Shown here in pieces: positions 41,939-44,257 of a stretch of 64,000 nucleotides of DNA. The stretch lies in the sequence record PQ657772.1. The stretch is one strand, 5' to 3'. The translations under genes and the position numbers were made by a program. The DNA comes from Escherichia phage EC.P1. Each line of letters starts with the position of its first letter. Within the stretch, counting starts at the first letter, position 1. The notes beneath the pieces are model-generated. The model was not told the origin of the DNA. It did no database searches and was given only the letters and a program-made list of their open reading frames with translations.

Positions 41939-42494
41939 AACTCAATACCTCCATTAAGCACTCATAAACACCATCAATCGCATAAGCACAAAAACTGAAA
42001 TTAATTTTGTTATTCTTGTGTAATGGACTATTGTATACTGTACTCAACATAACACTATAAAACAAAGAACGTTCATGTGTAAATAATGATTCCTGAAAAA
42101 ATGCTTCCTCTGATTTAATTTTATTATATTCAATCGATTGATCATTAGAATAAAATGAATCTTGATTTGAATTGTACCATGTGTAATCCAAATCATTCTT
42201 TGATATAACTGGTGTTGGATTAAACTGTAAAAGACTAATAACACTACGGGCATTTGGGGTATCAGGTGTATTGAATCGTTTGTCAAAATAACTTGTGCAC
42301 GCAATATGTGAATCAAAATCAGATGGTTTAAACCCCATGAATGCGTTAATGATTCTTGTATATGGTTTTTTATTATGTGCTGCTTTTTGTACATTATATA
42401 AGGCTGCAACAATACAAGCTAACTTTTGTCCCATTAGGATTGCATTAGCGTAGGTGTACTGAATTTCATTGCTGGTACTGTACTTCGAGATCAT
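41925..42494 (-). CDS. hypothetical protein, paralog family A
   Basis: Motif EEAFFQESLF. Confidence 0.55.
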   Translation of the reverse strand: MISKYSTSNEIQYTYANAILMGQKLACIVAALYNVQKAAHNKKPYTRIINAFMGFKPSDFDSHIACTSYFDKRFNTPDTPNARSVISLLQFNPTPVISKNDLDYTWYNSNQDSFYSNDQSIEYNKIKSEEAFFQESLFTHERSLFYSVMLSTVYNSPLHKNNKINFSFCAYAIDGVYECLMEVLSYEAE

Positions 42495-42816
42495 GGAACA
42501 GCCTCACTTTGCCTAACTCGTCATTGGATATTAATTCGTTAACAGCTTTCTGTATATTCTTTAATAATAGCACATCAAATCCTTTTGTGTCAAGCACACA
42601 TTGCATTTGGAAGAATTCTTCTTCTGATAATGTATTAAAATCCACAAAATTGTCTAATATTACGTCATTATCCAAATGTGCCATGTGCCATGTATTTCTT
42701 TCGGAGCGTTTAATAAAATTCCATCCATCTGGATAATCGGGTTCTAATTCTACATATATCCCTGATAATGTATAAAGCATTTTATACTTCATAACTATTG
42801 TACTCATTGCTTTCAC
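42466..42816 (-). CDS. hypothetical protein, paralog family A
   Basis: Motif EEEFFQMQCV; probable start at internal MKYKMLYTL. Confidence 0.55.
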   Translation of the reverse strand: MKAMSTIVMKYKMLYTLSGIYVELEPDYPDGWNFIKRSERNTWHMAHLDNDVILDNFVDFNTLSEEEFFQMQCVLDTKGFDVLLLKNIQKAVNELISNDELGKVRLFHDLEVQYQQ

Positions 42817-43124
42817 TGTACGTCGATGTCATAATACGCTCCTACTTCATAATCTTTCTTGCTTTGGAATTCATTAACGACTTTCTGTATATTTCTTAAT
42901 GTTACCATGTCATGTCCGTACATGTCAACCACCAATTGCATTTGGAAAAATTCTTCTTCAGATAATGTATTAAAATCTATAAAATAATCCGTAACAACAT
43001 GTGCGTCTAAATTTGCCATGTACCATTGATTGGTATCGACCTCTTTAACCAAATTCCATGCATCTGAATCGGATTCTAATTCTACATATATTAATGTTAA
43101 TGTATACAGCATTTTATACTTCAT
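42813..43124 (-). CDS. hypothetical protein, paralog family A
   Basis: MKYKMLYTL ... EEEFFQMQLV; close paralog of 42466..42816. Confidence 0.55.
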   Translation of the reverse strand: MKYKMLYTLTLIYVELESDSDAWNLVKEVDTNQWYMANLDAHVVTDYFIDFNTLSEEEFFQMQLVVDMYGHDMVTLRNIQKVVNEFQSKKDYEVGAYYDIDVQ

Positions 43125-43620
43125 AACTATATCCTTGCATTAATAAATCATAAACGTTTGAAAGGTGCGGAATTTTGATATAAAATTTAAAACCCTTAAT
43201 TAAAGGATTCGCGTACAATGAACTGAATAACTTTAGATAATGTATTTGACGAGGACTGTATAATAACGATTTCTGAAATAATTCAGCACTACAATCTGTA
43301 CTAATATCAATTAAATCAATTCGTGCTTCTACTTCATCATCTTGTTTCAAAACATAAAAGAAATAATCGTTTGTGTTGACCCACAAATACCCTTCACTAT
43401 TTTCGTATATAACAGGAGATGCTTGTTCTGGATTGCCTTGGGCAAATGCTGCAAAACAAACTTTTGCATTACTTTCATCTTTAAACATAAACGATAATTT
43501 ATCATATCTATCTTCTATGCGTAAATCACCTATAAAAATGTACTTATGCATAGAATGATTATTCTTGAGCATAAGCATTACTGTACTAATCTTGTGTGCT
43601 AACAATTCTATCTCATTCAT
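43114..43620 (-). CDS. hypothetical protein, paralog family A
   Basis: Motif SAELFQKSLL, C-terminus LLMQGYSYEV. Confidence 0.55.
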   Translation of the reverse strand: MNEIELLAHKISTVMLMLKNNHSMHKYIFIGDLRIEDRYDKLSFMFKDESNAKVCFAAFAQGNPEQASPVIYENSEGYLWVNTNDYFFYVLKQDDEVEARIDLIDISTDCSAELFQKSLLYSPRQIHYLKLFSSLYANPLIKGFKFYIKIPHLSNVYDLLMQGYSYEV

Positions 43621-43626
43621 ATATTA

Positions 43627-43707
43627 TTACCTATTGATAGATACATCGTCATTGACTTCTAATTCAACATAAATCATATCTTTTGTATAAAGCATTTTAT
43701 ACTTCAT
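43627..43707 (-). pseudogene. truncated remnant of an MKYKMLYTL-type family A gene (26 codons)
   Basis: Hand-translated MKYKMLYTKDMIYVELEVNDDVSINR then stop; same overlapping junction as 43114/42813 pair. Confidence 0.45.
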
Positions 43708-44257
43708 AACTATATCCTTGCATTAAAAGATCATAAGCAATATCAACTAATTCTAAACGAATGAAAAATTTTAAATTATCTTTCAATGGATTCAAATGCA
43801 TTGTACTAAACAACATAAGATACTTCATTTGATTTGTATTGTATATTAGGGATGTCTGAAATACTTCTGCTTCATTGTAAGGATCAATGAATTTTATACC
43901 TTCTTCACTATAATCCGTTTTGGAATTTTGATATATAAAATAATCATCACCATAATTGTACCACAAATAACCTTCAAAACTGGAATCAAATTCTGAATTT
44001 TCATTTCGCATTAAAGGTGATACTGAAATTGGATTTGAACCAACTGTTGCACAAACCTCAATGAAAGCATCTTCATTTCCCTTAACTTCTTCTTTGATTT
44101 TATCATTGTACTGTCCTGCAAAACCAGCTTTTACTTCCAAATATAAACTACTCCCAACTTTATTAATTCTTAAAAGGGAACTCTGTACTGTATTCGCATT
44201 GTTCAGCACTAACGATATTGTGCAAATCTTATGTACCAATAACTCAATATCATTCAT
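43697..44257 (-). CDS. hypothetical protein, paralog family A
   Basis: Motif EAEVFQTSLI, C-terminus LLMQGYSYEV; paralog of 43114..43620. Confidence 0.55.
   Translation of the reverse strand: MNDIELLVHKICTISLVLNNANTVQSSLLRINKVGSSLYLEVKAGFAGQYNDKIKEEVKGNEDAFIEVCATVGSNPISVSPLMRNENSEFDSSFEGYLWYNYGDDYFIYQNSKTDYSEEGIKFIDPYNEAEVFQTSLIYNTNQMKYLMLFSTMHLNPLKDNLKFFIRLELVDIAYDLLMQGYSYEV

Follow-up and report, generated by a model that had tools for sequence, protein, structure and literature searches.

Probable partial-unit tandem duplications with chimeric junctions in a paralog array of an Asteriusvirus jumbo coliphage

We analyzed a locus of small paralogous genes in a stretch of 64,000 nt (here referred to as the window) from Escherichia phage EC.P1, an Asteriusvirus jumbo coliphage. 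The genomes of these jumbo phages are ~350-385 kb in size. All genes of the region are carried on the minus strand, where the order within the locus is g60, A1, a 26-codon stub, A2, B1, a 16-codon mini-open reading frame (mini-ORF), B2 and A3. The locus is composed of two alternating paralog types, here named A (phrog_19795) and B (phrog_33987), both of which belong to one superfamily of 42 members. Over 2.6 kb around the locus the window was 99.8% identical to phage WPEC5 and 99.6% identical to fEgEco12, and diverged counterparts were recognisable in 33 Asteriusvirus records, including those of 121Q and PBECO4. The genome of fEgEco12 has direct terminal repeats of 20,993 bp (PMC13070987); its copy of the locus is located at 30.2-32.8 kb, which by coordinate arithmetic is ~10 kb inside the left repeat. 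A first-pass annotation of the window had described A1 and A2 as paralogs, each followed by an out-of-frame start, and had taken the short open reading frame (ORF) behind A1 for the fossil of a tandem duplication followed by decay.

Gene content and junctions of the locus

The features of the locus are as follows:

44269..44451, minus strand: g60, a 60-aa gene upstream of A1 taken from the ORF list; its homologs precede the A gene in all relatives
43697..44257, minus strand: A1, 186 aa, phrog_19795 E = 4.5e-50 (profile 1-179/179), A1 allele class
43691..43726, minus strand: first copy of a 36-nt exact direct repeat, at the 3' end of A1 and the 5' end of the stub
43644..43707, minus strand: B-derived part of the stub (B nt 1-64, KDMIYVELE allele type)
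43627..43707, minus strand: 26-codon stub ORF, 21 B codons followed by 5 codons of out-of-frame g60 tail
43621..43643, minus strand: g60-derived 23-nt stub tail with the A2 ribosome-binding site AGGT
43125..43707, minus strand: unit 1, 583 nt, with A2 as its cargo
43114..43620, minus strand: A2, 168 aa, phrog_19795 E = 5.5e-33, A2 allele class
43108..43143, minus strand: second copy of the 36-nt exact direct repeat, at the 3' end of A2 and the 5' end of B1
42813..43124, minus strand: B1, 103 aa, phrog_33987 E = 7.4e-41
42793..43124, minus strand: unit 2, 332 nt, with B1 as its cargo
42782..42832, minus strand: 16-codon mini-ORF MTSTYSESNEYNSYEV*, putative second junction scar
42466..42792, minus strand: B2, 108 aa, starting with MKYKMLYT, phrog_33987 E = 4.8e-54 (profile 1-108/108)
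41925..42494, minus strand: A3, 189 aa, a third A-type paralog, phrog_19795 E = 3.9e-56
18426..48349, minus strand: the paralog array of 42 superfamily members, A and B genes included

The ORFs named in the first-pass annotation all exist. A1 and A2 both end with LLMQGYSYEV and are 39% identical (tblastn E = 4e-30), so their description as paralogs was confirmed. B2, A3 and the mini-ORF between B1 and B2 had been overlooked. A3 is ~30% identical to both A1 and A2, and B1 and B2 share 57% amino acid and 77% nucleotide identity, the latter over 268 nt. The matches to the family hidden Markov models (HMMs) were full-length for A1, A2 and A3 (phrog_19795) as well as for B1 and B2 (phrog_33987).

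The alleles differ in their distribution. A1 was 99-100% identical within the clade of the window (window clade) and in Ecwhy_1, 92% identical in ph0011 and 54-58% identical to the class found in 121Q and PBECO4. The B1 allele class was found only in the window clade and in Ecwhy_1. B2 belongs to the ortholog class of 121Q gp350 and shares 79% identity with the B gene of 121Q.

An out-of-frame start does follow both A genes. It lies within the 23-mer ATGAAGTATAAAATGCTTTATAC, which is present at 43685..43707 (0 mismatches), where it opens the 26-codon ORF behind A1, and at 43102..43124 (1 mismatch), where it opens the 103-aa gene B1 behind A2. A third copy, absent from the first-pass annotation, was located at 42770..42792 (0 mismatches). 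Dinucleotide shuffles (100 in total) gave no match to the 23-mer, as compared to the three observed. Aligned at the nucleotide level, the segment from A1 to the stub and the segment from A2 to B1 showed collinear high-scoring segment pairs (HSPs), one of 220 nt with 70.5% identity (E = 3e-24) and another that covers the first 60 nt with 72%. The collinear similarity, whose absence had been named as the finding that would speak against a duplication, is therefore present.

For the anatomy of the stub, every A/B boundary was aligned across 15 relatives. The first 52 nt of the stub were identical (52/52 nt) to the 5' end of the B gene of phage A4, which is of the KDMIYVELE type, and resembled neither B1 nor B2. 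Homology to the B genes of PBECO4 and UE-S1 extended through nt 64 (...GACGATG) and stopped abruptly at this position. The remaining nt 65-87, reaching up to the ATG of A2, were not B sequence. Here, TATCCATCAATAGGTAA matched in 17/17 nt the sequence upstream of the single A gene of UE-S1, i.e. the 3' end of g60, and the PBECO4 counterpart of this sequence differed at one position. The g60 allele of UE-S1 and PBECO4 ends with TATCCATC(A/G)ATAGGTAA directly before the start codon of the A gene. Additionally, ATAGGTAATAATAT of the stub tail showed a 14/14 match to A4 upstream of its A2-class gene. Nucleotide 64 of B is directly joined to the last 23 nt of g60 with nothing between them, and no B-like sequence was found between stub nt 64 and A2. 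The trinucleotide ATG is common to both sides of this breakpoint (junction 1), and the ribosome-binding site AGGT that belongs to A2 itself lies within the g60-derived tail.

As judged from these alignments, the stub is a direct fusion of two gene fragments, nt 1-64 of a B gene and the terminal 23 nt of g60, and thus a chimera, the donor of the tail apparently being another allele of g60. We would rather regard it as a breakpoint scar than as an eroded gene, since decay would need a second deletion ending exactly at the duplication junction and B sequence is lacking beyond nt 64. Residual homology along the gene interspersed with disabling mutations, as left by gradual decay, was not found; B homology ends at nt 64.

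The mini-ORF between B1 and B2 lies in the third frame. Its nt 1-36 (42797..42832) correspond to codons 1-12 of the A3 allele present in vB_Ec-M-J, WPEC3 and CMSTMSU (MISKYNESNEYN), with GAAAGCAATGAGTACAAT (18 nt) being identical between the mini-ORF and this allele. The last 15 nt (42782..42796) are AGTTATGAAGTATAA, which is the invariant 3' end of an A gene, and the two parts are fused in frame. Here, nt 36 of A3 is directly joined to the last 15 nt of A, and AT is common to both sides of the breakpoint (junction 2). The mini-ORF has a Shine-Dalgarno sequence of its own (AGGAG), and its stop codon overlaps the ATG of B2. This composition identifies the mini-ORF as a presumptive second chimeric scar of a duplication junction.

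The A3 alleles of WPEC3, vB_Ec-M-J and CMSTMSU have extra N-terminal codons (NESNEYN) that are missing from A3 of the window. Since the mini-ORF keeps the 5' end of this other A3 allele, A3 of the window would not be the allele that was present when unit 2 was formed, or it would have lost the codons since.

The boundary between A and B genes is conserved itself. When the allele classes are compared with each other, identity is 96% over the final 30 nt of A and 84% over the opening 30 nt of B, as opposed to 41-55% in the core of A. This boundary block holds the AAGGA Shine-Dalgarno sequence of B, located 7 nt before the B ATG and inside the last codons of A, and the stop and start of the two genes overlap by 11 nt. 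Because of the embedded Shine-Dalgarno sequence and the stop/start overlap, the block is doubly constrained.

Presence of the units and allele classes in related phages

The two units were found in different combinations. In 121Q and PBECO4 the order was g60-A-B-A3, with neither duplication. TH47, ECO103, slurp01 and BF17 carried unit 1 only (g60-A-stub-A2-B-A3), and Ecwhy_1 carried unit 2 only (g60-A1-B1-mini-B2-A3). Both units were present in the window, WPEC5, Turkey3, WPEC3, vB_Ec-M-J and CMSTMSU. The adjacent copies are collinear, with a start-to-start spacing of 583 nt for unit 1 and 332-335 nt for unit 2 and HSPs of 70.5% over 220 nt and 77% over 268 nt, respectively. A full B gene between two A genes was found in no sampled genome. 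Exact-pattern scans of IMG/VR and GTDB genomes for the upstream junction of A2 gave no match, and the contigs reached through proteins added only architectures like those of A4 and UE-S1.

The stubs of TH47, ECO103, slurp01 and BF17 have a B::g60 junction identical to the one in the window, which argues for a single origin of junction 1. The stub of the TH47 lineage has acquired a +1 insertion and a 6-nt deletion. TH47, ECO103 and slurp01 are thereby left with an ORF of 14 codons, and BF17 has a 12-nt duplication in addition to the same insertion. Frameshift, deletion and duplication are those of a remnant without constraint; real decay of the stub was seen only in this lineage (TH47, slurp01, BF17). 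Within the window clade the stub shows only 1-2 substitutions in 76 nt.

Two pairs of genomes differ by precisely one unit. Over 1403 aligned nt, identity between the window and Ecwhy_1 is 99.43%, and the two differ by a single indel of 583 nt with the 36-nt exact repeat at its borders. This repeat, TTAATGCAAGGATATAGTTATGAAGTATAAAATGCT, occurs twice (43691..43726 and 43108..43143), takes in the AAGGA and the ATG of B at the A/B boundary and is part of a 96-nt repeat family (D1). TH47 and PBECO4 differ by a single 578-nt indel, which is bounded by a 42-nt repeat. Such a pattern would be expected from homologous recombination across the boundary repeat. In the case of Ecwhy_1 we favour loss of unit 1, because the more distant vB_Ec-M-J (94.4% average nucleotide identity, ANI, to fEgEco12) has the unit and Ecwhy_1 (97% ANI to fEgEco12) is without it.

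The A genes fall into three allele classes: A1 (window, ph0011), Aq (121Q, PBECO4, UE-S1 and the first A gene of TH47) and A2 (A2 of the window, the second A gene of TH47, and A4). Identity between the classes is 43-58%. The first A gene and the B gene of TH47 are 99% and 100% identical to their counterparts in PBECO4, respectively. An A2-class gene is the sole A gene in A4 and in the metagenomic contig L016.

Nucleotide identity of A2 between the window and TH47, ECO103, slurp01 and BF17 was 97.6-97.8%, as compared to 73-82% for A1, B and A3. Synonymous divergence (dS) of A2 between these backgrounds was 0.027 vs 0.11-0.39 in the flanks. The high identity of A2 across backgrounds that differ in the neighbouring genes suggests that the A2 unit has moved between them. 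Within the window, dS was 1.10 between A1 and A2 (saturated) and 0.53 between B1 and B2, and the stub was at most 8-11% diverged from living B alleles. Had a neutral scar been formed at the time of the A1/A2 split, it could no longer be recognised, hence the junction appears to be much younger than the paralogs. The copies show no sign of having started out identical at this locus, and A1 and A2 are better read as long-diverged allele classes stacked side by side than as duplicates that diverged in place. The stacking of diverged alleles could have come about either by unequal recombination in co-infection or by duplication followed by allelic replacement.

Positive selection was considered as well and rejected, as gene-wide dN/dS (ratio of nonsynonymous to synonymous divergence, Nei-Gojobori) gave no usable signal. 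The values ranged from 0.16 to 0.85, the highest being that of A2 (0.85) on 12 substitutions.

Further differences between relatives were observed next to the two units. A3 is absent in ph0011, UE-S1, A4 and the contigs L016-L020. Where it is missing (ph0011, UE-S1, A4 and several contigs), B runs directly into a homolog of gene D113, whose N-terminus (MTSKY...) resembles the start of A3 fused to the body of D113; D113 of the window begins with ATGAAG, which is B-like. This boundary looks like a third junction of gain or loss at the same hotspot. Turkey3 (L001 3860..4189), A4 (L012 3317..3667) and the metagenomic contig L016 (3519..3878) carry an extra gene of 109-119 aa between g60 and A. Its product has a signal-peptide-like N-terminus and is outside the superfamily of the A and B proteins; the window is without it. 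In CMSTMSU (L015, MH494197.1, UNVERIFIED_ORG record) A1, A2, B2 and A3 are each frameshifted into two to four pieces, which are probably sequencing errors and not biology.

Origin of the locus

Taken together, we consider it likely that the locus, as a recombination hotspot within a large paralog array, arose by two partial-unit tandem duplications that left chimeric scars. Each of the partial units would have been added by an independent event of out-of-register recombination. Unit 1 (583 nt) would comprise the last 23 nt of g60, the A gene and the first 64 nt of B, and unit 2 (332 nt) the last 15 nt of A, the B gene and the first 36 nt of A3. Where the duplicated segment ends inside a gene, each join would leave a chimeric junction, namely the stub and the mini-ORF. 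Because the 36-nt repeat flanks unit 1, homologous recombination across it could subsequently remove or transfer the unit precisely.

Several points weigh against this explanation. The microhomologies of 2-3 nt at the breakpoints are weak evidence for a mechanism. The indels in Ecwhy_1 and PBECO4 could be read as loss or as gain, and the comparison records of Ecwhy_1, TH47, ECO103 and CMSTMSU are UNVERIFIED GenBank entries. The g60-derived tail is only 23 nt long in AT-rich DNA, so that its identification rests on position and the 17/17 match. Finally, a full A-B duplication followed by a deletion with its right end exactly at the junction would result in the same sequence and is excluded only by parsimony.

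According to the simplest textbook path, identical duplicates were formed in one genome and the entire divergence of A1/A2 and B1/B2 arose in place, with no lateral exchange or stacking. The junction common to both carrying lineages, which was accordingly formed once, fits such a course. However, the saturated dS of A1 and A2 (1.10) is difficult to reconcile with a neutral scar that differs by no more than 8-11% from extant B alleles, and dS of A2 between the backgrounds (0.027) is far below that of the flanks (0.11-0.39). Moreover, the first A slot is occupied by different classes depending on the background (54-58% aa identity), whereas the second slot is 95% identical. Divergence entirely in place is thus unlikely.

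The stub and the mini-ORF could also be functional short ORFs that were selected as coupling leaders and hand ribosomes on from one gene to the next (A1 to A2, B1 to B2). The stub of the window clade retains AAGGA and ATG and stops 6 nt before the ATG of A2. The mini-ORF, with its AGGAG and its in-frame fusion, ends on the ATG of B2, which is itself without the AAGGA that B1 has. Coupling of B2 through the mini-ORF and its strong AGGAG would be plausible. Furthermore, none of the window-clade genomes examined has a disrupted copy of either ORF, but these genomes are 94-99.8% identical, which makes the intactness little informative. The frameshift in TH47, ECO103 and slurp01 leaves a stub of 14 codons that ends ~40 nt before A2, and BF17 has the same insertion along with its 12-nt duplication; nevertheless A2 of this group is still 95% conserved, with an AGGT site of its own. 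No unusual RNA structure was seen either (z = -0.06 to +0.80). A role as selected leaders is therefore improbable in our view.

The course proposed in the first-pass annotation was a tandem duplication of the full A-B pair, followed by decay or internal deletion of the first B gene that left 26 codons. Its first part, duplication, stands, as the two segments are collinear and similar. Its second part is not supported for the window, although the disabling indels of TH47, slurp01 and BF17 show that the stub behaved as a pseudogene fragment in this lineage after its formation. In the window the stub is a clean chimeric join: the g60 tail follows B nt 64 immediately, and a second event would have had to end exactly at the junction of the first. 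The predicted intermediate with a full B gene between two A genes was absent from the sampled genomes, the scar at junction 2 is equally clean and chimeric, and the stub has kept 52/52 nt identity to a living B allele despite the saturated dS between A1 and A2. Duplication followed by decay is, in consequence, distinctly improbable, and what had been read as a decayed paralog is better read as a duplication breakpoint.

Chance similarity or an assembly artefact, which might be suspected in AT-rich DNA of low complexity with some unverified comparison records, can practically be dismissed in view of the 23-mer copies (3 vs 0/100 shuffles), the HSP E-values of 3e-24 and 6e-56 and the same architecture in six independently sequenced phages.

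The mechanism proposed here, two partial-unit duplications, is a familiar one. In T4, lambda and bacterial genomes, tandem segmental duplication by illegitimate (microhomology) recombination is a classical process, which leaves a novel junction as a scar and is followed by loss via homologous recombination between the repeats. The collinear units, the chimeric end-to-beginning junctions with 2-3 nt shared at the breakpoints and the indels of precisely one unit between close relatives, with a direct repeat at their borders, are in agreement with it. Unlike in the classical case, the copies at the locus are long-diverged (39-57% aa identity), and part of the process would be stacking or replacement of alleles between co-infecting relatives.

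In the 'gene accordion' of poxviruses, K3L is amplified under host pressure and the copies are identical and transient. As in the accordion, a small gene near the end of the genome varies in copy number between very close relatives, expanding and contracting via repeats, the window and Ecwhy_1 being one unit apart at 99.43% identity. The near-identical copies of an accordion were not found; those of the locus (39-57% aa identity) are old and divergent and number only 1-3.

The modular theory of phage evolution describes mosaic exchange at conserved gene-boundary sequences, such as the boundary 'linkers' of lambdoid phages. Likewise, the gene ends of the locus are conserved (84-96% nt) around variable cores (41-55%), and A and B alleles occur in different combinations from genome to genome, the crossovers mapping to the boundary block. 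In contrast to the lambdoid linkers, the reason why the boundary is conserved can be seen here, i.e. the stop/start overlap and the embedded Shine-Dalgarno sequence, and the exchanged modules are single paralogs of 100-190 aa from one family.

The locus offers a nucleotide-resolved case of the gain, loss and exchange of single small genes in a jumbo phage, with all intermediate states present in sequenced relatives. It is a clean and unusually well preserved example of ordinary phage genome evolution, which overturns nothing.

The surrounding array and expression signals

With B1 and B2 as seeds, an iterative HMM search of all 226 ORFs in the window converged on 42 ORFs, all of them on the minus strand between 18426 and 48349 (here referred to as the FQ superfamily). 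None of 904 reversed or shuffled decoys matched. A profile without the five A/B genes still recovered all five (E = 5e-10 to 4e-5). In an alignment of 51 sequences the F and the Q of an acidic motif, [ED][ED][ED]xFQxS[LT], were invariant. The AlphaFold2 model of B2, built from the paralog alignment, was confident, with a pLDDT (predicted local distance difference test) of 84 and a pTM (predicted template modelling score) of 0.82, and consists of five strands, two helices starting at the FQ motif and a final strand. The model of A2 was fair (pLDDT 76) and has an extra N-terminal helix.

The superfamily is a narrow one. Clusters among 5.8 billion proteins numbered 9 for B and 22 for A, and in a set of 1.84 billion proteins the whole superfamily comprised only 171 clusters at 50% identity. 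All named members were from E. coli or Asteriusvirus records. Searches against Pfam, NCBIfam, PADLOC and with a PDB sequence profile returned nothing significant, and neither a sequence nor a fold match of significance linked the proteins to known defence or anti-defence families or to solved structures. The family and the locus are undescribed in the papers on fEgEco12, UE-S1, Sharanji and CBB as well as in the jumbo-phage survey of Iyer et al.

The array spans ~30 kb, which is roughly 8% of the genome, and adjoins the terminal repeat. Expansions of paralogs have been reported from other jumbo phages, examples being the zinc ribbons of Bacillus phage G, with about 35 copies (PMC7824862), and a set of 22 paralogous ORFs in phage CBB (PMC5259590). 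Like these, the array is a large tandem family of small uncharacterised proteins, and it lies beside the terminal repeat. In CBB, a block of short hypothetical genes near the terminal repeat was presumed to be early (PMC5259590). Based on this presumption and on the position of the array next to the terminal repeat, we would guess at an early role of the array proteins in host takeover or counter-defence, and the 42 paralogs are a reasonable place to seek such functions. Going further, the array might be a cassette system of early effectors for host takeover or counter-defence, in which the boundary blocks double as recombination linkers. Co-infecting Asteriusviruses would then stack, swap and shed single effector cassettes, the A2 unit among them, with the coupled string being kept, and the stub and the mini-ORF would be by-products. 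We put this forward as a tentative possibility.

The genes from 46364 down to 41121 overlap or abut, with spacings of -35 to +28 nt, and those of the locus are probably translationally coupled. An RNA element at the conserved junction was considered and rejected: there was no Rfam match and no tRNA, and folding of the three copies gave z = -0.06, +0.80 and -0.18 against shuffles. In the whole window (1..64000), too, neither tRNA genes nor Rfam families at the gathering threshold were found.

Putative promoters and a terminator were located in the vicinity. The following sites are intergenic sigma-70-like matches with a perfect TTGACA and a TG-extended -10, with the exception of the last, which is a hairpin:

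47099..47071, minus strand: sigma-70-like site
46429..46401, minus strand: sigma-70-like site
41102..41074, minus strand: sigma-70-like site
41133..41112, minus strand: terminator-like hairpin at the end of gene E165

Their arrangement suggests operons of ~5 kb that may be driven by the host polymerase. A scan for sigma-70-type sites gave 61 sites vs 59 ± 8 by chance and thus no excess. A promoter at the junction was considered as well, where TATAAAAT resembles a T4-type late promoter; the site count of the sigma-70-type scan did not exceed chance. A promoter-like match of the form TTGACA-18-TAxxAT is present at the homologous position inside B2 (42593..42564, minus strand) and B1 (42928..42899, minus strand), where it covers the codons V/L-D-T/M, and is probably coincidental to the coding sequence.

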